9,935 bases of DNA from a plasmid. Numbering within the stretch: the stretch's first letter is position 1; each line of letters opens with the position of its first letter. The position numbers and the translations under genes were made by a program. The stretch lies in the sequence record NZ_CP104353.1; one strand, given 5' to 3'. The notes below the pieces were generated by a model, which was not told the DNA's origin, searched no databases, and saw nothing but the letters and a program-made list of their open reading frames with translations. Below are positions 1,599-9,398 of the stretch, one piece after another.

Positions 1599-1637
1599 AA
1601 AAGCCGTTCTAGTGCGCTGAACTCTAGAACGGCTTTG
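1599..1637 (+). terminator. Hairpin terminator after the rep/HTH unit
   Basis: Arm AAAAGCCGTTCTAG (1599-1612) pairs with CTAGAACGGCTTT (1624-1636) around an 11-nt loop and is followed by a T-run. Confidence 0.45.
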
Positions 1638-1672
1638 ACTAAACTATTGATGCTTATAAGAAAATTTCAAGC

Positions 1673-1700
1673 ATTTCGCATAAGGCGTATTATGTTAATT
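1673..1700. other. pdif: pdif site (XerC-6 bp-XerD), C/D orientation
   Basis: ATTTCGCATAA-GGCGTA-TTATGTTAATT: 11-bp XerC arm, 6-bp spacer, 11-bp XerD arm matching the dif/pdif consensus. Confidence 0.85.
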
Positions 1701-1716
1701 TTAGAAAACCTTAAAT

Positions 1717-1992
1717 CTATTTTTTCTTTAATTCCTCTAAAATTTGGTCTTGTATCTTACATAATTTATCTTGGTATTCTAAAAGTAAATCTAATTTCTC
1801 AGACTCTAAATTAATTAATTCGCTTTGTAACTCTATATTGTCAAGCATCAAATTATCGTATTCAAAACTATTCCTGAGTCTTTCTACTATTTCTGCTGTA
1901 ATAGAATTACCAGTAAGACTAGCTGACTGTTCTATTTCTTCTTTTAAATCAAGAGGAAGTCTAAAATTAACCTGGGTATACTTTTTAATCAT
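1717..1992 (-). CDS. Arc/MetJ-type ribbon-helix-helix DNA-binding protein with a C-terminal coiled-coil
   Basis: 91-aa ORF. The N-terminus VNFRLPLDLKEEIEQSASLTGNSITAEIVERL fits a beta-strand plus two helices RHH pattern. The gene is divergent from an 18-bp perfect palindrome. Confidence 0.6.
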   Translation of the reverse strand: MIKKYTQVNFRLPLDLKEEIEQSASLTGNSITAEIVERLRNSFEYDNLMLDNIELQSELINLESEKLDLLLEYQDKLCKIQDQILEELKKK

Positions 1993-2024
1993 GAAATTCT
2001 AGAGTCTAAAATGTCTTGAATAAC

Positions 2025-2066
2025 TATAGCACATTTGCTATATATTATTATAGCAAATGTGCTATA
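2025..2066. promoter_or_regulatory. Perfect 18-bp inverted repeat (6-bp spacer) in a divergent promoter region; candidate operator
   Basis: TATAGCACATTTGCTATA (2025-2042), spacer TATTAT, then TATAGCAAATGTGCTATA (2049-2066), which is the exact reverse complement. It lies between the RHH gene start (1992) and orf132 start (2086). Confidence 0.6.
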
Positions 2067-2085
2067 ACATTTGGAGTAGCTATAT

Positions 2086-2484
2086 ATGTCCAACATTATT
2101 GAATTTAAAAGAAATGAAAGGAGATTTATTAATCAAAAACCTATCAGTCCTGTAGAACTAGTGACAAATATACTCACTCCACAAGAGGTAGATATAAAGT
2201 CTTTGATTAAGGAAACAAAGAAAATTTTAAGAGAAAAAGGCTTAAAATTTCGTACTTCTCATCAAGATTTGGAACACTTAAAAGGAAATAATTTAATATT
2301 ATTTTCCAAAAAGAAATGCGGGTTTATCTTAACCACAAAGTTAGCCTGTAGCACAAATAGCTCATGGGAAATATATTCCATAAGTATAGATAAGACGACG
2401 AAAGCATTAGATATTGTTAATAAAATTATATCTAGGCTAGGAGATAACGTTCATGGCAGCAGCAGAGAAGAAGCAATCAGCTAA
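2086..2484 (+). CDS. Hypothetical protein (132 aa), no recognisable domain
   Basis: Intact ORF that starts 20 bp after the palindrome. Its codon usage is AT-rich, like its neighbours. Confidence 0.5.
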   Translation: MSNIIEFKRNERRFINQKPISPVELVTNILTPQEVDIKSLIKETKKILREKGLKFRTSHQDLEHLKGNNLILFSKKKCGFILTTKLACSTNSSWEIYSISIDKTTKALDIVNKIISRLGDNVHGSSREEAIS

Positions 2485-2671
2485 TCCAGCGATGGAAGCA
2501 GCGAAAGAGGCAGCAAATATTAAAATTGATGGCTTTGAGCAAGGTGTAAATACCTACAATGCGATTGGTTCACAATTATTGCGAGAAAAGCGAGATCCAA
2601 GTGTAATTAATAAAACTCGTGAAAATAGACGAAATATTCGAAAAGCACGAGAAGCTATCAAGAATTTATAG
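2453..2671 (+). CDS. Hypothetical small charged helical protein (72 aa), overlapping orf132 by 32 nt in the +1 frame
   Basis: A good RBS AGGAGA sits 8 nt before ATG 2453. The protein is Lys/Glu/Ala-rich. The overlap runs through the GCAGCAGCAGAGAAGAAG repeat. Confidence 0.45.
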   Translation: MAAAEKKQSANPAMEAAKEAANIKIDGFEQGVNTYNAIGSQLLREKRDPSVINKTRENRRNIRKAREAIKNL

Positions 2672-2716
2672 TAAAAAGCTTCTTAAGATCTAAAATATAA
2701 AAAATTCTCATTAAAC

Positions 2717-2741
2717 AAGCCCTAAGAAATTCTCAGGGCTT
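2717..2741. terminator. Bidirectional terminator-like hairpin between convergent orf72 and orf244
   Basis: AAGCCCT (2717-2723) pairs with AGGGCTT (2735-2741) around an 11-nt loop. T-rich tracts flank it on both strands. Confidence 0.4.
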
Positions 2742-2759
2742 TGTTCATGATAAAAATTA

Positions 2760-3494
2760 TCAGAACATGTCTTCTGCAAAAGTGACTAAAACAAGGCTGT
2801 GAAACTCCAATTCCGTATATACACAAGCATCTAGTCTAAGAAATTTTTCCTTATCAGATGGAAAATTATAAGGTACAGACCAAGGTTTTATTAAACAAGG
2901 ACTTACCTTATCAAAAGTTCCAATAAATTCCTTTTTAGTTAAATCATAAATTCTGATTACACTTAACTTAACAATACTCAAAACCCAAAGCATGTGGCCC
3001 TTATAGGTCTGATAATTATCACAAACCAGCACACCATACTTTTTTAATAAGTATTTGTATATAAATGAGGAAACTCCATTTCGCTGATAATTGGCTAAAA
3101 TCGATGCACCTTTTATTTGTTTACCTGTTATTTTAATAGAGTCATTAATAATTTCGATATCTTTAAATGCGTATCTCGCTATCAAAATTTCTTTCTCTAC
3201 TTCATAAGCTTCTAAGGCTTTATTAGCAGCGTCATATTCATCTAAATATTCATCAGCAACAGCACAAACCCCATCCAATGCATACTCATTATTAAATTCA
3301 CAATAAAAAAGCTCAATACATCCAGAATACTCGCTACCTTCTGAAGCTTGCAATTCTTTTAAACAAAATATTCCACCTTCCCTTTGGTTGTAGAAGTACT
3401 TACTTTCAAGAATATTTTCATAAGAAAAGTAAACAGGTAGTGGAATTAAAGGCTTATTATAATTTTCTTCGAGAAGTATGTGTGGAGGAGTCAA
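2760..3494 (-). CDS. Hypothetical protein (244 aa), apparent TTG start; second gene of a two-gene operon
   Basis: Long intact ORF. An AAGG RBS lies 6 nt before the TTG at 3494, and only 18 nt separate it from the upstream gene's stop. There is no clear domain. A weak GNAT motif-A-like stretch (QRNGVSSFIYKYLLKKYG) is noted but is unconvincing. Confidence 0.55.
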   Translation of the reverse strand: MTPPHILLEENYNKPLIPLPVYFSYENILESKYFYNQREGGIFCLKELQASEGSEYSGCIELFYCEFNNEYALDGVCAVADEYLDEYDAANKALEAYEVEKEILIARYAFKDIEIINDSIKITGKQIKGASILANYQRNGVSSFIYKYLLKKYGVLVCDNYQTYKGHMLWVLSIVKLSVIRIYDLTKKEFIGTFDKVSPCLIKPWSVPYNFPSDKEKFLRLDACVYTELEFHSLVLVTFAEDMF

Positions 3495-3512
3495 TTTAAA
3501 CCTTATATTTCA

Positions 3513-3833
3513 TCAAGCTACTAATGTTGGTTTAATAATATCATTAATTTTAGCTTCTAACATTTTCTCATAAGAAGTTAATTCTGGATACTGTTTGGAT
3601 GCTTTAATAGAAAATCTTAAGCTATTATTTCTTTCTTGAATTTCAGCTACAACTTTCACATCATCCCAATCTTTTTTATTGAGAATAATATCTTTGAAAA
3701 TAAGTATATATTGCTTATTTTTTTCTTTCTCAGAAAAACGTCTTAGTTCAAATGTTTGACGAATATTAGGCATAGTAAAACGCTGAACTAAATCAGTACT
3801 ATTTTTGAGGGTTTGAACAGTTCTAGTGAACAT
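3513..3833 (-). CDS. Hypothetical protein (106 aa); first gene of the operon. The start is trimmed to the internal ATG at 3833.
   Basis: The ORF track extends to 3914, but the first 27 codons are low-complexity translation of AT-rich promoter DNA. ATG 3833 has an AGGTG RBS 5 nt upstream. Confidence 0.5.
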   Translation of the reverse strand: MFTRTVQTLKNSTDLVQRFTMPNIRQTFELRRFSEKEKNKQYILIFKDIILNKKDWDDVKVVAEIQERNNSLRFSIKASKQYPELTSYEKMLEAKINDIIKPTLVA

Positions 3834-3877
3834 TTTGACACCTACATACCTAAAGAAATAAAAGAAAATAAAAATAT

Positions 3878-3911
3878 ATAGTGACAGGTTATAAGACAAA
3901 TATGTCACTAT
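3878..3911. promoter_or_regulatory. Inverted repeat in the divergent promoter region between orf106 and the wHTH gene; candidate operator
   Basis: ATAGTGACA (3878-3886) and TGTCACTAT (3903-3911) are exact reverse complements with a 16-bp spacer. An alternating (TA)n near-palindrome lies at 3937-3965. Confidence 0.4.
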
Positions 3912-3983
3912 CAACTACGTCAAATTTGGCGTACTATATATATATTAATTTATATATATATATGAATAGGGTTTTAAAAAATT

Positions 3984-4394
3984 ATGTTAAATTTTGAATT
4001 AAAAGAAAAGTGGGGCGAAAACTCTCTAATATTAGGGTTCACGCAGATCCCAACTACTCTAATTTATGCACAAAAAGAGCTTGGTCTATCATCTATAGAA
4101 ATTAACATCTTACTTAACTTATTGACCCATTGGTGGAAGAAAGAAGAATTTCCTTATCCATCTCAAGCTGGAATTGCATATCGAATGGGAGTTTCTACTA
4201 GAACTGTACAACGAACATTAGCAGGTCTTGAAACAAAAGGATTCATAACCAGAAACAAAACATCAAGAGATAACAGTAAATACAAAGGAAGGAGTATTTA
4301 TGATTTATCTCCATTAGTAAAAATTCTGGAAGAAAAGGCACCTGATCTAGATATTGTGAAAAAAATTAAAAAAAATAAAAGACTAGCTAAATAG
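3984..4394 (+). CDS. Winged-HTH DNA-binding protein (HTH_36/replication-initiator-N-terminal-like), putative regulator
   Basis: 136-aa ORF whose segment IAYRMGVSTRTVQRTLAGLETKGFI is a typical HTH recognition helix plus wing. It is divergent from the orf106-orf244 operon. Confidence 0.55.
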   Translation: MLNFELKEKWGENSLILGFTQIPTTLIYAQKELGLSSIEINILLNLLTHWWKKEEFPYPSQAGIAYRMGVSTRTVQRTLAGLETKGFITRNKTSRDNSKYKGRSIYDLSPLVKILEEKAPDLDIVKKIKKNKRLAK

Positions 4395-4422
4395 ATTTAA
4401 CATAAAATCTCTTACGATAAGT
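4395..4422. other. pdif: Degenerate pdif-like site, D/C orientation (good XerD arm, poor XerC arm)
   Basis: ATTTAACATAA (4395-4405) is the exact reverse complement of the XerD arm TTATGTTAAAT. A 6-bp spacer AATCTC follows, then TTACGATAAGT, which matches the XerC-arm reverse complement poorly. Its position restores the alternating C/D, D/C, C/D, D/C pattern along the segment. Confidence 0.35.
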
Positions 4423-4423
4423 C

Positions 4424-4452
4424 AAAAAAGGGAGCTTAAAGCTCCCTTTTTC
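4424..4452. terminator. Bidirectional rho-independent terminator between convergent wHTH gene and orf69
   Basis: AAAAAAGGGAGCTT (4424-4437) pairs with AAGCTCCCTTTTTT (4439-4452) around a 1-nt loop as a near-perfect hairpin, with an A-run before it and a T-run after it. Confidence 0.6.
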
Positions 4453-4661
4453 TATCTAACTATATGAATCTTCGGTGATGTTTGTATACCTAATTGCCTG
4501 AAAATATGCCATAGAGCTATGTTGCGATACTGGTACATAGCAATTTGTGAAAAATCAAACCATTGTTCGGATGTGAATTGGTTTATATCAGAAAAAGGTG
4601 GATAACCTCTTAGAGCTAGAAATGCATTAATTTCTTCTACCATTGGATCGAGCTCAAACAT
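4452..4661 (-). CDS. Hypothetical small protein (69 aa)
   Basis: Complete ORF with a weak RBS, ending in the terminator hairpin. An in-frame stop lies just upstream, so it was not truncated by the IS inserted about 52 bp upstream of its start. Confidence 0.35.
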   Translation of the reverse strand: MFELDPMVEEINAFLALRGYPPFSDINQFTSEQWFDFSQIAMYQYRNIALWHIFRQLGIQTSPKIHIVR

Positions 4662-4713
4662 GTTTTAAAACCTAATAAAGAATAAAGTCCAATTGTAAAT
4701 CCCCTTTAAAAGG

Positions 4714-5873
4714 TTAGGACTTACGCATTAACTTGCAAATTCTTACAGAAAGGTAGAGACTAGGATGTAGCCTACAATTATAAGATATTGTAATTAAATG
4801 AATAAAGTATCAAATGGTTTAGATTTTCGTCAGGACTATTGTCAGTTTCTGATCGTGAGCCAAAAAAACTTCACTCAAACCTATTTTGCCGAACATACCA
4901 AAAGCTATACTCATGACCAGATCAACCGCTATTTGAAGTCTGATCACATCAGCTCTGCTGATATTTGGACAGAAGCAAAAGCTCATATTATCCCGAGTAA
5001 TAAAGGCTATTTATTATTTGATGATACTGTTATTGATAAAAACTACTCTACCAAAATTGAAATGGTTCGTCGCCAGTACAGCGGTAATGCAGGCAGAGTC
5101 ATCAAGGGAATAGGTGTTGTTACCTGTGTGTATGTGAATCCAGAAATAGATCAATATTGGATAATTGATAAACGTTTTTATGATATAGATACGGACAATA
5201 AGACTAAATTACAACATGTTAAAGATATGTTTAATGACACGATTGATCATAAAAAGCTGGCATTTACAACACTATTAATGGATTCGTGGTATGCGGTCAA
5301 ATGGCTGATGTTATTGATAGAAAGTCGAGGGATTATTTATTATTGCCCGATTAAAAGTAATAGAAATGTCAATAAAATAAGTAATTTAGAGATTAACTAT
5401 CAACGAGTTGACAGCCTGACATGGACAGATGAACAACATCAGTATGGGCATAGCGTCCATTTACGCGGTTTTCCCAAAGGTCATTCATTACAGGTTTACT
5501 GTTTACCGTTCTCTACCGAACGTACAGATTATATTGTGACGAATGCAACAACGACTCATACACTTGATGAGATCAAAACAATCTGTGCAGTTCGCTGGCG
5601 TATTGAGCAGGTGCATCGGGAGTTAAAACAAACGACAGGTATAGAACGTTGCCAGTGTCGCAAGGGTCAAAGTCAACGAAATCATATAGCTTGTTGTATA
5701 TTGGTGTGGCATCGTTTGATCGCCTTAGCGAGAAAATGGAAAACGACGATTTATAAGTTAAAGCAAGGCTTACTCAGTTCTTATATGCGAGAACAACTCA
5801 GAAAGCCTGATATTGTGATGCTATTTTCTGGGCTATAGTGCATTATTTTTTTACTTTTATGCGTAAGTCCTAA
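4714..5873 (+). mobile_element. Insertion sequence, IS701/IS4-superfamily type, about 1.16 kb
   Basis: 15-bp terminal inverted repeats TTAGGACTTACGCAT (4714-4728) and ATGCGTAAGTCCTAA (5859-5873) flank a single DDE transposase ORF. No clear target-site duplication is visible (flanks AAGG and GGTC). Confidence 0.7.
4798..5838 (+). CDS. tnp: DDE transposase (IS4/IS701-like)
   Basis: 346-aa ORF. Candidate catalytic D residues sit in LLFDDTVIDK and LLMDSWYA. A C-terminal R(3)E(6)K signature (RWRIEQVHRELK) is typical of IS4/IS701 transposases. Confidence 0.85.
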   Translation: MNKVSNGLDFRQDYCQFLIVSQKNFTQTYFAEHTKSYTHDQINRYLKSDHISSADIWTEAKAHIIPSNKGYLLFDDTVIDKNYSTKIEMVRRQYSGNAGRVIKGIGVVTCVYVNPEIDQYWIIDKRFYDIDTDNKTKLQHVKDMFNDTIDHKKLAFTTLLMDSWYAVKWLMLLIESRGIIYYCPIKSNRNVNKISNLEINYQRVDSLTWTDEQHQYGHSVHLRGFPKGHSLQVYCLPFSTERTDYIVTNATTTHTLDEIKTICAVRWRIEQVHRELKQTTGIERCQCRKGQSQRNHIACCILVWHRLIALARKWKTTIYKLKQGLLSSYMREQLRKPDIVMLFSGL

Positions 5874-6081
5874 GGTCACTTTTTTATTGTTCCAAATCCT
5901 CTTTACAGTTTTTTTGTTCTCTACTTTACAATTGACTTGGGAAATTATCCCGATGTTTGTCCGCAGGAAATGGGGATAAAAGTGGGTTATTGGAGCATTG
6001 AGAAATCAGGAAAAATTAAATTTTTGAGTATTTTTTAATCGATTTTGTTGGCTAAAAGTGACAAAGTTGCTTAAAAAGCAT

Positions 6082-6101
6082 CCGACTTGTTTCCAAGTCG
6101 G
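6082..6101 (+). terminator. Terminator-like hairpin in a non-coding relic region
   Basis: CCGACTTG (6082-6089), loop TTTC, CAAGTCGG (6094-6101), followed by CTTTTCACCTATTTTTT. Confidence 0.35.
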
Positions 6102-6169
6102 CTTTTCACCTATTTTTTAGTCATGACTAATTCTATAAATAATTAAAAAATAATAACTTTTCATAATTT

Positions 6170-6197
6170 ATTTCGCATAACGCCCATTATGTTAAAT
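6170..6197. other. pdif: pdif site, C/D orientation
   Basis: ATTTCGCATAA-CGCCCA-TTATGTTAAAT. Confidence 0.85.
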
Positions 6198-6270: not shown

Positions 6271-7098
6271 ATGAAAAAATTTATACTTCCTATATTCAGC
6301 ATTTCTATTCTAGTTTCTCTCAGTGCATGTTCATCTATTAAAACTAAATCTGAAGATAATTTTCATATTTCTTCTCAGCAACATGAAAAAGCTATTAAAA
6401 GCTATTTTGATGAAGCTCAAACACAGGGTGTAATTATTATTAAAGAGGGTAAAAATCTTAGCACCTATGGTAATGCTCTTGCACGAGCAAATAAAGAATA
6501 TGTCCCTGCATCAACATTTAAGATGCTAAATGCTTTAATCGGGCTAGAAAATCATAAAGCAACAACAAATGAGATTTTCAAATGGGATGGTAAAAAAAGA
6601 ACTTATCCTATGTGGGAGAAAGATATGACTTTAGGTGAGGCAATGGCATTGTCAGCAGTTCCAGTATATCAAGAGCTTGCAAGACGGACTGGCCTAGAGC
6701 TAATGCAGAAAGAAGTAAAGCGGGTTAATTTTGGAAATACAAATATTGGAACACAGGTCGATAATTTTTGGTTAGTTGGCCCCCTTAAAATTACACCAGT
6801 ACAAGAAGTTAATTTTGCCGATGACCTTGCACATAACCGATTACCTTTTAAATTAGAAACTCAAGAAGAAGTTAAAAAAATGCTTCTAATTAAAGAAGTA
6901 AATGGTAGTAAGATTTATGCAAAAAGTGGATGGGGAATGGATGTTACTCCACAGGTAGGTTGGTTGACTGGTTGGGTGGAGCAAGCTAATGGAAAAAAAA
7001 TCCCCTTTTCGCTCAACTTAGAAATGAAAGAAGGAATGTCTGGTTCTATTCGTAATGAAATTACTTATAAGTCGCTAGAAAATCTTGGAATCATTTAA
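6271..7098 (+). CDS. blaOXA-24-like: Carbapenem-hydrolysing class D beta-lactamase, OXA-24/40 family
   Basis: 275-aa ORF with a lipoprotein-type signal (LSAC) and class D motifs STFK, SAV, YGN, KSG and WLTGW. The sequence reads as an OXA-24/40-group enzyme. The exact allele (OXA-24/40, -72 and so on) cannot be assigned by eye. Confidence 0.93.
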
Positions 7099-7108
7099 TA
7101 ATTTCTAA

Positions 7109-7136
7109 AATTAACATAATACGCCTTATGCGAAAT
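7109..7136. other. pdif: pdif site, D/C orientation; identical to the pdif at 1673 in inverted orientation
   Basis: AATTAACATAA-TACGCC-TTATGCGAAAT. Its reverse complement is ATTTCGCATAA-GGCGTA-TTATGTTAATT, the same 28 bp as 1673-1700. Confidence 0.85.
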
Positions 7137-7144
7137 TTGCCTGA

Positions 7145-7180
7145 ATAGCCTTTCTCAGAAAGGCTATTACTGATTTTTCA
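7145..7180. terminator. Rho-independent terminator just outside the bla module, overlapping the stop of the mobC-like gene
   Basis: ATAGCCTTT (7145-7153), loop CTCAG, AAAGGCTAT (7159-7167), followed by TACTGATTTTTCA. Confidence 0.5.
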
Positions 7181-7925
7181 CTAAAGCTTTCTTAATTTCG
7201 ATGACTGACAATAACTCTCCGTCTTTTTTCCAGGTATTCAGTCCCTCTAATACCTGATGAAAAAGCTTATTTCTTTCAAAATATCCATTTTTATAACTTT
7301 TAACTTCTTGATATATCTTAGATTTCATTACATCATCATGAAATTTTTTCGTATTCTGAATGCGATTCTTCATCTGTTCAGGCGTATCTTGACTAATATC
7401 AATCCCTAACTCCTTGAAAGCAGCTAACACAGCACCGCCCAACTCAAACTTACGATGATTTTCAGCCGTTCTTTTTTTGCTGGCTTCCTTCTTCTGGATC
7501 TGACTCAAATAAAGCTCTAAATCACTCAACTCAAGCTTATGCGCTTTGAAACTCAGATAACGAGTCGCCATGGTTTTCAAGATATTAAAATCAGCACCAC
7601 TCAACGCATTGTCCCGATAAGCCTCAAACAACTGCACAAACTTCCGTTCATATGCGGTCTGCGGATACTTCACAGACACCTCATCAAACAATAAGTTCAG
7701 CTTCATATGCTCACGATAAGGTTTTAAGGCCTCTTTCACCAAGATCTGTTCAGCTTCAGACAATGACTCAAAGTTAAATTTTTCAATTCGTAGCATTGCA
7801 ATCACATCATTCTGCAAATCAGAACGATCCTTCTTCTGTGAAAGATAGTCTACAAATGCATGTAACTCTGCGATTTGTAAAAGTTGTGCAGGTCTGCCAC
7901 GTTTTTTTGATTTATCCAATGCCAT
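7167..7925 (-). CDS. Putative relaxosome accessory protein (MobC-like by position); function inferred from synteny only
   Basis: 252-aa ORF divergent from the mobA relaxase with oriT between, the same layout as mobC-oriT-mobA in RSF1010. No sequence motif was recognised with confidence. Confidence 0.5.
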   Translation of the reverse strand: MALDKSKKRGRPAQLLQIAELHAFVDYLSQKKDRSDLQNDVIAMLRIEKFNFESLSEAEQILVKEALKPYREHMKLNLLFDEVSVKYPQTAYERKFVQLFEAYRDNALSGADFNILKTMATRYLSFKAHKLELSDLELYLSQIQKKEASKKRTAENHRKFELGGAVLAAFKELGIDISQDTPEQMKNRIQNTKKFHDDVMKSKIYQEVKSYKNGYFERNKLFHQVLEGLNTWKKDGELLSVIEIKKALVKNQ

Positions 7926-8110: not shown

Positions 8111-8228
8111 GCGATTCCCCCTTGACCCCCTTTAACCGGATTATTTCAGCCCTGTAGGCATTACATAATCCGGAGATTTTTATTGCGTTTCACTCCATAA
8201 AAACCAACAACACCCCAAGGAAGTGAAC

Positions 8229-9398
8229 ATGGCCAGTTACCATTTCAGCGTCAAAAGTAAAAATAAAGGCTACGCACTGAGCCACTACCTGTACATTTCC
8301 CGACTCATGCAATACGAAGGCATCCGCAAAAAGAGTGCAGAAGTCCTCGAACATGTCGAACCAGGGCAATGCATGCCCTCCTGGGTCAAAGATCCGGTTG
8401 AATTCTGGCAAGCAGCGGACACCTTTGAACGGGCCAATGCCAAGGCTTACATGGAATACGAAATTGCCCTACCGAATGAATTCACCGTAGAACAACGTAA
8501 AACGCTCGTAGAGACATTTGTTGATAAAACCATAGCAACACACCACTACCCTCATTCCTACGCCATACACAACGTAAAATCACGCCTCAGTGGTGAAGAA
8601 CAACCCCATTGCCACCTCATGTTTTCACTCAAAGCCGATGACGGCATAGAACGAAGTCCGGAACAATACTTCAAACGCTACAACGCTAAAGAACCAAGCA
8701 AAGGCGGAGCAAAGAAAATTCAACTACAGGATGGCCATGCCGACTACACCACTTACCTCCTACATATCCGAAAAGCCTGGGAAAATCACCTGAATGATGC
8801 ATTGGCAGAACATAGCCCAACCGTGACTTACCAGATCGATGGCCAGAAGATCCAAATTAAAAACCAAGTTTCGGCAGACAACTACGAAAAATACAACGAG
8901 ATACACGGCACCCTCTACCTACCAGAACCCAAACTGGGGACAGGCAAACAAAATGAAACCGTGGAATACCTAGCGGAAATCCAGAAAATCAGACAACACA
9001 ATGCCAAAGAACGAGAACTGGAACAGCGCCAACAATACTTTGATCAACAGCATGAATACTACTACAGCTGCTCAAACGAACCCTTCAGTTCTCCGGAAGT
9101 GATGCACTACCTCAATCACCTCATTAAAAAAGCCAGTAACAAAAAAGAACTGGGCCACGATATCGACGAAATTATTCAAACTCAGCAACCAATCCTGCAT
9201 CACGAAAAATGGGATATCGATACCATCAATTTTAATCTCAATAACGCCAGGTTATACCCAGAACCGGATATGGAGTTTAAAGTCCGATCCGTACAACCAA
9301 AACCAGTGATTGAACCAACATCACCGAAGTCAAAACCTGAAATACAACCCTCACAGCCTGAACCGAAACGAAATGATTATGATGGTCCGGGTTTTTAA
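8229..9398 (+). CDS. mobA: MobA relaxase, MOBQ family. The start is placed at ATG 8229; the ORF track begins at GTG 8223.
   Basis: The N-terminal MASYHFSVK carries the catalytic Tyr. The HCHLMFS histidine motif and the GIERSPEQYFKRYNAKEPSKGGAKK block align with RSF1010 MobA (MAIYHL, HCHLMIS, GIERPAAQWFKRYNGKTPEKGGAQK). An AAGGAAG RBS lies 5 nt before the ATG. Confidence 0.9.
   Translation: MASYHFSVKSKNKGYALSHYLYISRLMQYEGIRKKSAEVLEHVEPGQCMPSWVKDPVEFWQAADTFERANAKAYMEYEIALPNEFTVEQRKTLVETFVDKTIATHHYPHSYAIHNVKSRLSGEEQPHCHLMFSLKADDGIERSPEQYFKRYNAKEPSKGGAKKIQLQDGHADYTTYLLHIRKAWENHLNDALAEHSPTVTYQIDGQKIQIKNQVSADNYEKYNEIHGTLYLPEPKLGTGKQNETVEYLAEIQKIRQHNAKERELEQRQQYFDQQHEYYYSCSNEPFSSPEVMHYLNHLIKKASNKKELGHDIDEIIQTQQPILHHEKWDIDTINFNLNNARLYPEPDMEFKVRSVQPKPVIEPTSPKSKPEIQPSQPEPKRNDYDGPGF

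Follow-up and report, generated by a model that had tools for sequence, protein, structure and literature searches.

We examined a 9,935-nucleotide stretch of plasmid DNA from sequence record NZ_CP104353.1 (hereafter, the window), which corresponds to a small (9.9 kb) Acinetobacter plasmid of the pMMCU1/pMMA2/pHUAV family, classed as GR12 (PMC8826734). We focus on its 2.7-kb segment at positions 1717-4394, which is a D-type dif module of this GR12 OXA-24/40 plasmid, that is, one with the XerD arms of its flanking Xer sites facing inward. The distribution of its six genes supports well the conclusion that the segment consists of two unrelated, separately controlled cassettes joined at a convergent terminator near position 2730. 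Cassette A (2760-4394) comprises orf244, orf106 and, divergent from them, the gene for a winged helix-turn-helix (wHTH) protein, wHTH136; it is conserved and widely distributed. Cassette B (1717-2671) carries Arc91, orf132 and orf72. With moderate confidence, we read cassette A, the right-hand unit, as a repressor-controlled acetyltransferase conflict cassette, for which we infer a role in exclusion, defense or addiction.

Two Unrelated Cassettes in One Module

An initial annotation of the window had described the segment as AT-rich cargo with six genes and as the best candidate in the window for an undescribed system. All six open reading frames (ORFs) were present, in two divergently regulated units, and the GC content of 1717-4394 (29.8%, close to the 30% first estimated) was the minimum for any stretch of the same size, compared to 35.0% for the whole window. 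The six ORFs also look like real genes under purifying selection when aligned to a collinear six-gene variant of 94% nucleotide identity (L041). The ratios of nonsynonymous to synonymous changes (pN/pS) in this comparison were 0.07 for Arc91, 0.25 for orf132, 0.19 for orf72, 0.08 for orf244, 0 for orf106 and 0.03 for the wHTH gene, with those of orf132 and orf72 resting on few changes (14 and 10 substitutions, respectively).

The annotation had further treated the six genes as one tightly regulated system enclosed by two regulators. In keeping with this, all copies in the lineage keep the six genes collinear and intact, including the 94% variant with all of its pN/pS values below 0.3, and the genes share one pair of Xer sites; a search of the assembly collection for the exact orf132 protein yielded 263 blocks, and the five neighboring genes were the same in all of them. 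However, co-occurrence of the two halves, the lack of which the initial annotation had named as refuting its reading, failed above the level of this single lineage. The wHTH-orf106-orf244 trio recurs in eight other plasmid loci (L006-8, L020, L034, L035, L036 and L041; identity of orf244, 57-98%), where the dif modules contain other companion genes. The neighbors of the trio in the other modules had no similarity to Arc91, orf132 or orf72, none of these three genes was found at any other-lineage locus with the trio, and no relatives of theirs were detected near any orf244 homologue. PLSDB held no relatives of orf132 (tblastn) or orf72 beyond nine near-identical plasmids, and none turned up in GTDB genomes (one per species in the orf132 search), metagenome contigs or viral contigs. 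Arc91 had only weak, unlinked relatives elsewhere in PLSDB (39-53% identity). A search for related loci from one alignment (A1) added only two loci. Because Arc91, orf132 and orf72 are lineage-restricted while the trio recurs with other companions, we consider the segment composite and a single six-gene system very improbable. Separating the halves, between the convergent orf72 and orf244 genes, is a hairpin (2705-2753; -15.4 kcal/mol, z = -2.9) that is probably both a bidirectional terminator and the junction of the two cassettes. On the far side of the wHTH gene, two of the related loci encode an 82-aa Ser/Ala/Lys-rich protein (L006:5015-5263 and L035:180-428; 65% mutual identity) that is absent from the window.

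A Divergent GNAT-Fold Protein and Its Obligate Neighbor

The orf106 (3513-3833, minus strand) and orf244 (2760-3494, minus strand, TTG start) genes of cassette A form a bicistronic operon, the small gene before the large one, with an 18-nt gap in the window and overlapping reading frames in L003 and L042. The initial annotation had recognized no motif in any of the four non-regulatory proteins. This remains so for orf132 and orf72, which had no Pfam, NCBIfam, PHROG or PADLOC match, but not for the pair: orf244 and orf106 matched over their full lengths PHROG families 3307 (E 2.7e-56) and 2594 (E 9e-33), respectively, both of unknown function, and orf244 could be assigned a fold (see below). 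The adjacent pair was found in five settings. In SSU5, PhiR41_1 and a Buttiauxella element, it sits at one syntenic place, after the holin, endolysin and spanin genes and before parA; in a prophage-like contig of Acinetobacter, it follows the lysis genes (holin/endolysin) and precedes umuDC; in the lambdoid PhiR12 phages, it adjoins the integrase gene; Acinetobacter replicons of ~110 kb, such as pABTJ2 and ZW85p2, also carry it; and a Photorhabdus chromosome has just the two genes, as an islet, between cat and sohB. A tblastn search of PLSDB retrieved orf244 relatives from 354 records, mostly ~110-kb replicons, and orf106 relatives from 167. All 102 of the Acinetobacter records were positive for both genes, and the fewer orf106 matches outside this genus probably reflect the sensitivity limit of a 106-aa query. 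The orf244 family is small: when 1.84 billion representatives were searched exhaustively with its profile, only 128 matches at E<=1e-3 and ~45 full-length clusters were returned. Thus, orf106 is an obligate neighbor of orf244 and the pair travels as an autonomous two-gene unit. An origin of the operon in temperate phages and phage-plasmids is well supported.

Some small-plasmid copies of orf244 are irregular. In pMMCU1 (L001:1869-2602, equivalent to window positions 2760-3494), a 1-nt deletion splits the gene into two ORFs, which are annotated as two hypothetical proteins. The tblastn match in pMMA2 begins at residue 15 and is 95.7% identical. These oddities point either to gene decay in some copies or to errors in sequences from 2009.

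The assignment of orf244 to the GNAT superfamily as a divergent member is well supported at the level of fold and borderline at the level of sequence. The protein has the GNAT core, a mixed beta-sheet with a V-shaped cleft at beta4/beta5 and flanking helices, and its nearest solved structures are the C-terminal GNAT-like domain of Rv1916/ICL2, NatD/Naa40, Hat1 and AAC(2')-Ia, with 7-14% sequence identity to any solved GNAT. Foldseek searches of viral models gave weak matches of orf244 to NAT_SF proteins, and the two family profiles matched PDB sequences only at the level of chance. No Pfam or NCBIfam family matches orf244 itself, but its family profile extends to distant proteins with Acetyltransf_1 above the cut-off (P0074, P0076, P0079, P0068, P0071, P0075 and P0091). 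The match to these proteins spans Y-Q-x-x-G-I-S ... L-x-x-D-x-x-Q-T-x-x-G-x-x-L-W, a stretch equivalent to motif A, helix 3 and strand 5 of the GNAT fold. Of the proteins to which the initial annotation could assign no motif, one, orf244, thus has a place in a very well-known enzyme superfamily. The same signature, as Y-Q-G-x-G-I ... SDxxQTxxGxxLW, is repeated two or three times in giant proteins of 1429-1884 aa (P0068, P0071, P0075, P0086 and P0091), some of which also contain DUF6934 repeats and a ParB-like nuclease match.

While sharing the GNAT fold, orf244 differs from the rest of the superfamily by an extra beta-rich region of ~70 N-terminal residues, by a signature of its own (GKQIKGA ... 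Y-Q-x-x-G ... DNxQTxxGxxLW, with the first and last blocks invariant), by a motif-A glycine that is not invariant and by its obligate small partner. Motif A, the pyrophosphate-binding loop (Q/R-x-x-G-x-G/A), reads Q137-R-N-G140-V-S142 in the window protein and Y-Q-x-x-G-I-S/A in many relatives, and G140 is replaced in several. The partner, orf106, combines a beta-sheet with a C-terminal helix. We considered whether orf106 could be a duplicated or degenerate part of orf244 and discarded the idea when hhalign found nothing. Another reading is that orf244 acetylates a small molecule, such as an antibiotic, and was selected alongside OXA-24 in clinical Acinetobacter. We consider this very improbable: no hidden Markov model (HMM) of a resistance family matches the protein, the AMRFinder-based annotation in PLSDB lists only blaOXA-24, the family resides mainly in phages and phage-plasmids of many genera and always with orf106, and the gene is frameshifted in pMMCU1.

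Exchange of the Enzyme Gene Against a Constant Partner

Of the two genes of the pair, orf106 is the more conserved. The pABTJ2 (L010:5100-6900) and ZW85p2 (L011:4106-5900) replicons (~111-114 kb) are 99.8% identical over 553 nt upstream, 100% in orf106 and 97% downstream; the orf244 homologue alone has diverged, to 67% identity in nucleotides and 60% in amino acids. The divergent stretch reaches from about the fifth codon of the gene to its stop codon. The small plasmids show a matching gradient of conservation, from the wHTH (87-91%) to orf106 (77-94%) to orf244 (57-88%). As read from these alignments, an exchange of the enzyme gene as a cassette against a constant orf106 partner is well supported. 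A gene-sized replacement of this kind fits diversifying selection, as in arms-race genes, and fits poorly the co-evolving interface of a toxin-antitoxin (TA) system; that orf106 was kept identical across a swap between enzymes of 60% identity argues indirectly against a specific neutralizing interface.

These results bear on the possibility that orf106-orf244 is a classical type II GNAT TA system, in which orf244 would acetylate aminoacyl-tRNA and so arrest translation, a labile orf106 would be the antitoxin that binds and blocks it, and post-segregational killing would stabilize the plasmid or phage-plasmid. The pair shares with the GNAT/RHH systems (TacAT, AtaRT, KacAT and ItaRT; RHH, ribbon-helix-helix) the bicistronic, small-then-large layout and the tight coupling of the genes, and it stands as an autonomous island in the Photorhabdus chromosome. 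It also adjoins parA in the SSU5-like phage-plasmids, pMMCU1 tolerates a frameshifted orf244, and dif modules often hold TA pairs such as abkBA (PMC13141974). Yet the partner of the known GNAT toxins is a DUF1778/RHH protein, whereas orf106 is not and has no other DNA-binding antitoxin fold or motif. The known toxins are ~70 residues shorter than the 244-aa orf244, which has the additional N-terminal region and no match to a GNAT-toxin HMM, and the structural scores of AtaT and TacT fall below those of NatD, Hat1 and AAC(2'). Regulation on the plasmid also appears to be delegated to the separate, divergent wHTH. The putative antitoxin is more conserved than the enzyme and unchanged across the allele swap, the opposite of cognate co-evolution. 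For these reasons, we regard a classical TA system as unlikely.

An enzyme gene replaced like a cassette suggests an arms race and may also be accommodated by a role in counter-defense or host takeover to the benefit of the mobile element, in which orf244 would acetylate and thereby inactivate an immune protein or other factor of the host and orf106 would be its specificity subunit. Such a strategy has a precedent in the anti-CRISPR AcrVA5, which inactivates Cas12a by acetylation. The orf244 family is centered on temperate phages and phage-plasmids, and orf244 finds its best structural matches among the acetyltransferases that modify protein N termini or lysines (NatD, Hat1 and ESCO1). On the other hand, the small-plasmid operon has a dedicated divergent regulator with relatives that guard toxin-like genes (NYN, DUF3800), which points to a product that needs to be kept off. 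Furthermore, the pair stands alone in the Photorhabdus chromosome with no phage context, and we found no similarity to known anti-defense proteins. We rate this explanation as improbable to the same degree as the TA system, and these two are the main rivals of the conflict-cassette reading.

A Winged-Helix Protein Divergent From Variable Cargo

The wHTH136 gene (3984-4394, plus strand) encodes a stand-alone winged helix of the DnaD_N/HTH_36 type, with scores against Pfam of 45.3 bits for DnaD_N (PF21984; cut-off 27) and 40 bits for HTH_36 (PF13730; cut-off 25). The copies that lie beside orf106-orf244 homologues are 87-91% identical in seven other plasmid loci and 98.5% in L041, and PLSDB has 277 records with homologues at 40-52% identity. 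Among the small plasmids of enterobacteria that we inspected, the wHTH homologue is usually divergent from a variable cargo. In three plasmids, this cargo is an NYN protein that matches the PADLOC candidate HEC-09 (E 2.5e-30), and in others it is a 142-aa protein, either alone or paired with one of 56 aa (the 56+142-aa pair); two small plasmids (L023 and L029) keep the wHTH with no cargo, and in the Acinetobacter baumannii plasmid p3KSK20 the cargo is a DUF3800 protein. The wHTH proteins fall into four sublineages that track the cargo (GNAT pair, NYN/HEC-09, DUF3800 and 56+142-aa pair). The HEC-09 loci thus have the same layout as cassette A, with a wHTH ~50% identical to wHTH136 divergent from toxin-like cargo, and differ in that the cargo is a single NYN RNase-like protein rather than the GNAT pair. 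In six small plasmids (L024, L025, L026, L027, L028 and L031), the DnaD_N/HTH_36 protein, of 128-142 aa, always lies divergent from a small cargo that differs (NYN/HEC-09, DUF3800 or the uncharacterized 56+142-aa pair). The wHTH-plus-cargo arrangement may be a general architecture on ColE1-type plasmids. From its position and relatives, wHTH136 is probably a dedicated transcriptional repressor of a potentially harmful cargo operon.

The families that wHTH136 resembles most, DnaD_N and the N-terminal domains of RepC and phage O-like proteins, could instead suggest a minimal replication initiator, with 3916-3968 as a second origin and the right end of the module as a replicon remnant. A highly conserved (TA)n tract and a near-palindrome do adjoin the gene. 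However, wHTH136 matches only the N-terminal ~100 residues of replication initiators (RepC, O-like, DnaD-like) and lacks the C-terminal part of the 300-450-aa PHROG and NCBIfam proteins. Every enterobacterial wHTH carrier examined has a ColE1-type RNAI, so the wHTH is not their initiator; the window plasmid has a Rep_3 initiator of its own; and the wHTH sublineages follow the type of cargo. An initiator function is, accordingly, highly doubtful.

The intergenic region between orf106 and the wHTH gene contains a candidate operator. The initial annotation had reported exact palindromes in both divergent promoter regions, of which the one in cassette B stood (see below) and the one next to wHTH136 did not. 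The latter, a 9-nt inverted repeat (ATAGTGACA-N16-TGTCACTAT; 3878-3911), lies at the border between the conserved wHTH-linked segment and a diverged one. Its arm length is also reached by shuffled sequence and, although the right arm falls within a highly conserved block, five homologous loci show no conservation of the left arm (3878-3886), for which reason we rejected the repeat as an operator. A better candidate for the wHTH operator would be the near-palindrome TACGTCAAATTTGGCGTA (3916-3933), which in nine homologous loci changes only at its center and at one arm position. It is followed, upstream of the wHTH gene, by an alternating (TA)n/AT-only tract (3934-3968) that is nearly invariant across loci.

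A Proposed Repressor-Controlled Conflict Cassette

In the reading that we favor for cassette A, orf244 would use acyl-CoA to acylate a macromolecule, for example a component of the translation machinery or a protein encoded by a competing phage or plasmid. Rather than being a co-evolving antitoxin of the classical kind, orf106 would assist the enzyme in the role of a conserved adaptor, a regulator or a subunit that presents the substrate. Where the operon is on a plasmid, the wHTH would bind the near-palindrome at 3916-3933 and keep orf106-orf244 repressed, and the cassette would benefit its carrier as an exclusion/abortive-infection or addiction device. A conflict-type function (defense, addiction or exclusion), of the sort that the initial annotation had suggested for the whole segment, is the most plausible reading for the right-hand unit. 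No gene of the segment had a match to a PADLOC defense model at a meaningful score.

Several observations weigh against a conflict cassette of this kind. The PADLOC-DB 2.0 models had no match in Arc91, orf132, orf72 or orf244 and gave only generic HTH matches for the wHTH; the TA and defense models of NCBIfam and Pfam did not match orf244 either, and orf106 had only a weak PADLOC match to PDC-M01B (E 0.0045, 14 bits). No characterized homologue ties this GNAT family to a target or phenotype, and the use of acyl-CoA by orf244 is not certain because motif A is semi-conserved and G140 is not invariant. The phage copies of orf106-orf244 lack the wHTH; hence, the regulator is not intrinsic to the system. 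The pMMCU1 frameshift indicates that orf244 is dispensable there, or else is a sequencing error of 2009. In addition, HEC-09, which is the sole defense label among the wHTH-linked cargos, gave no phage protection (bioRxiv 10.1101/2024.01.29.577857), making the association of the wHTH with cargo only a hint at function. The repressor-operator assignments, finally, come from position and conservation only.

A more daring proposal, which we hold tentatively and as somewhat improbable, is that orf106-orf244 constitutes a new two-component conflict system and that the DnaD_N/HTH_36 wHTH is a general guardian repressor of interchangeable small-plasmid cargo. In such a system, the fast-evolving GNAT may act on, or through, the invariant orf106. 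By analogy to the enzyme-type (type VII-like) antitoxins, it may acetylate the strictly conserved N-terminal segment of orf106 (MFTRTVQTL..TD); alternatively, the GNAT may rely on orf106, in the role of sensor or adaptor, to present it with a target from the phage or the host. The guarded cargos (GNAT pair, NYN/HEC-09, DUF3800 and 56+142-aa pair) may all be toxic or defensive. If this is true, the wHTH family provides a guilt-by-association handle for finding new systems.

A Probable Arc-Type Repressor and Two ORFans in Cassette B

The first gene of cassette B encodes Arc91 (1717-1992, minus strand), a 91-aa RHH protein of the Arc/MetJ type with a C-terminal helical extension. It matches Pfam Arc (PF03869) with 25.2 bits, above the cut-off of 20.4, and Arc-like PHROG families with E values down to 1e-11. 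Divergent from it are orf132 (2086-2484, plus strand), a lineage-restricted ORFan, and orf72 (2453-2671, plus strand), which encodes a small basic protein, is also lineage-restricted and overlaps the end of orf132 by 32 nt. The region of the divergent promoters contains a 42-bp palindrome (2025-2066) with perfect 18-nt arms (2025-2042 and 2049-2066) and a 6-nt center, 33 nt upstream of the Arc91 start codon. In 30 shuffled versions of the region, the longest perfect arms measured 8-12 nt. Both arms are intact in L041, while the center and flanks are substituted. The orf132 promoter can be read as TTGAAT (2016-2021), 17 nt and TGcTATATA (2036-2044), and the extended -10 element of Arc91 (TGcTATAAT, minus strand) lies inside the palindrome. 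Based on position and conservation, Arc91 is probably an autorepressor and the repressor of orf132-orf72, with 2025-2066 as its candidate operator. A single Arc91 repressor bound at the palindrome would occlude both divergent promoters and would, in this way, control two lineage-specific ORFans. Arc91 shares with the Arc/Mnt-type repressors the Pfam Arc match and the perfect inverted repeat over divergent promoters, and differs from them by its length (91 aa), long C-terminal helical extension and putative ORFan targets. Prompted by the name that one source gives to a cluster member, we also evaluated Arc91 as a DUF1778-type antitoxin of the GNAT and rejected it: the protein has no Pfam DUF1778 match, its gene does not adjoin orf244 and the surroundings of the other orf244 homologues contain no homologue of Arc91.

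Module Boundaries, Mobility and Plasmid Context

A scan of the window with the Acinetobacter XerC/D consensus revealed four sites (1673-1700, 4395-4422, 6170-6197 and 7109-7136), the first two of which bound the module. The left boundary is a pdif site on the plus strand (1673-1700; ATTTCGCATAA-GGCGTA-TTATGTTAATT) with one mismatch in each arm to the Acinetobacter pdif consensus and its XerD arm inward. The right boundary is a pdif-like site on the minus strand (4395-4422; ACTTATCGTAA GAGATT TTATGTTAAAT), also with the XerD arm inward, with no mismatches in this arm and 5 in the 11 positions of the XerC arm. The module is, therefore, flanked by inversely oriented XerC-6 nt-XerD sites, as dif modules are. 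The equivalents of the right site in L020 (604-631) and L036 (1793-1820) have two and one XerC mismatches, respectively, and the GAGATT spacer and perfect XerD arm are kept in all loci compared (window, L020 and L036). The XerC arm of this site is ACTTATCGTAA in the window lineage and ATTTCGAATAA or ATTTCGTAGAT in relatives. Judging from its degenerate right XerC arm, the module may be losing present-day mobility at that end.

The description of the segment as mobile cargo within a pdif module proved accurate. Over window positions 1600-4500, plasmids of A. baumannii, A. wuhouensis and A. nosocomialis are 100% identical, and pMMCU1 is 99.9% identical. In L014, the identical module is combined with another Rep_3 backbone (Rep identity, 36%), and its left site differs in XerC arm and spacer; L013 and L017 have the same module in rearranged orders and orientations. 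The identical copy beside a different backbone and the rearranged orientations support its identification as horizontally mobile accessory cargo between Xer sites. Inverse XerC/D flanks and varied Rep_3 backbones and arrangements are shared with other Acinetobacter dif modules (PMC13141974, PMC6449649, PMC7399989). The window module differs from these by its degenerate right XerC arm (5/11) and by cargo made of two fused cassettes, neither of which is among the TA and resistance cargos named in those studies. RNA elements (type I/III TA, small RNAs) had no Rfam match within the module at E<=1, and a consensus scan for promoters and terminators gave fewer matches than in shuffled sequence and was thus uninformative.

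The plasmid carries, outside the module, a Rep_3 initiator gene (1-888), an OXA-24-like blaOXA gene (6271-7098) and mobA, encoding MobA (8223-9398). To the left of the module, between the gene for a 185-aa backbone protein and the pdif site at 1673, there is a perfect 13-nt inverted repeat (AAAGCCGTTCTAG/CTAGAACGGCTTT; 1600-1636) that is probably the terminator of the backbone gene; of the whole query, just this ~100-nt stretch was conserved across many other Acinetobacter plasmids. To the right, a perfect 13-nt hairpin (AAAAAGGGAGCTT/AAGCTCCCTTTTT; 4425-4451) abuts the pdif-like site and adjoins a 69-aa ORF without a family match that lies just beyond the module (4452-4661, minus strand). A weak, sub-threshold Rfam match to sraA (E 0.21) overlaps the area of this hairpin and ORF. 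The adjacent module (4423-6169), between the sites at 4395 and 6170, contains the gene for a 346-aa DDE transposase (4798-5838, plus strand; Pfam DDE_5/DDE_Tnp_1). This gene is absent from the 8771-bp pMMCU1, which identifies it as an insertion sequence that sets the window variant apart. Beside the OXA-24 dif module is a gene for a 252-aa hypothetical protein (7167-7925, minus strand) that is kept in all plasmids of the pMMCU1/pMMA2/pHUAV family and had no Pfam, PHROG, NCBIfam or PADLOC assignment.

Implications

The module rides GR12 OXA-24/40 plasmids that spread carbapenem resistance among Acinetobacter species. Its genes were drawn only as 'hypothetical CDS' in a study of these plasmids (PMC8826734), and our literature search found no paper that names the proteins by accession or discusses the module. 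The analysis shows a phage-derived acetyltransferase core with a fixed position in SSU5-like phage-plasmids of Enterobacteriaceae, also present in ~110-kb Acinetobacter replicons, in which the enzyme has been swapped and its partner kept identical. Together, these results mark the orf106-orf244 pair as a concrete candidate, amenable to testing, for a role in plasmid/phage conflict that could contribute to the persistence of these resistance plasmids. Furthermore, the pattern of a wHTH gene next to variable cargo could serve to mine small plasmids for toxin and defense genes.

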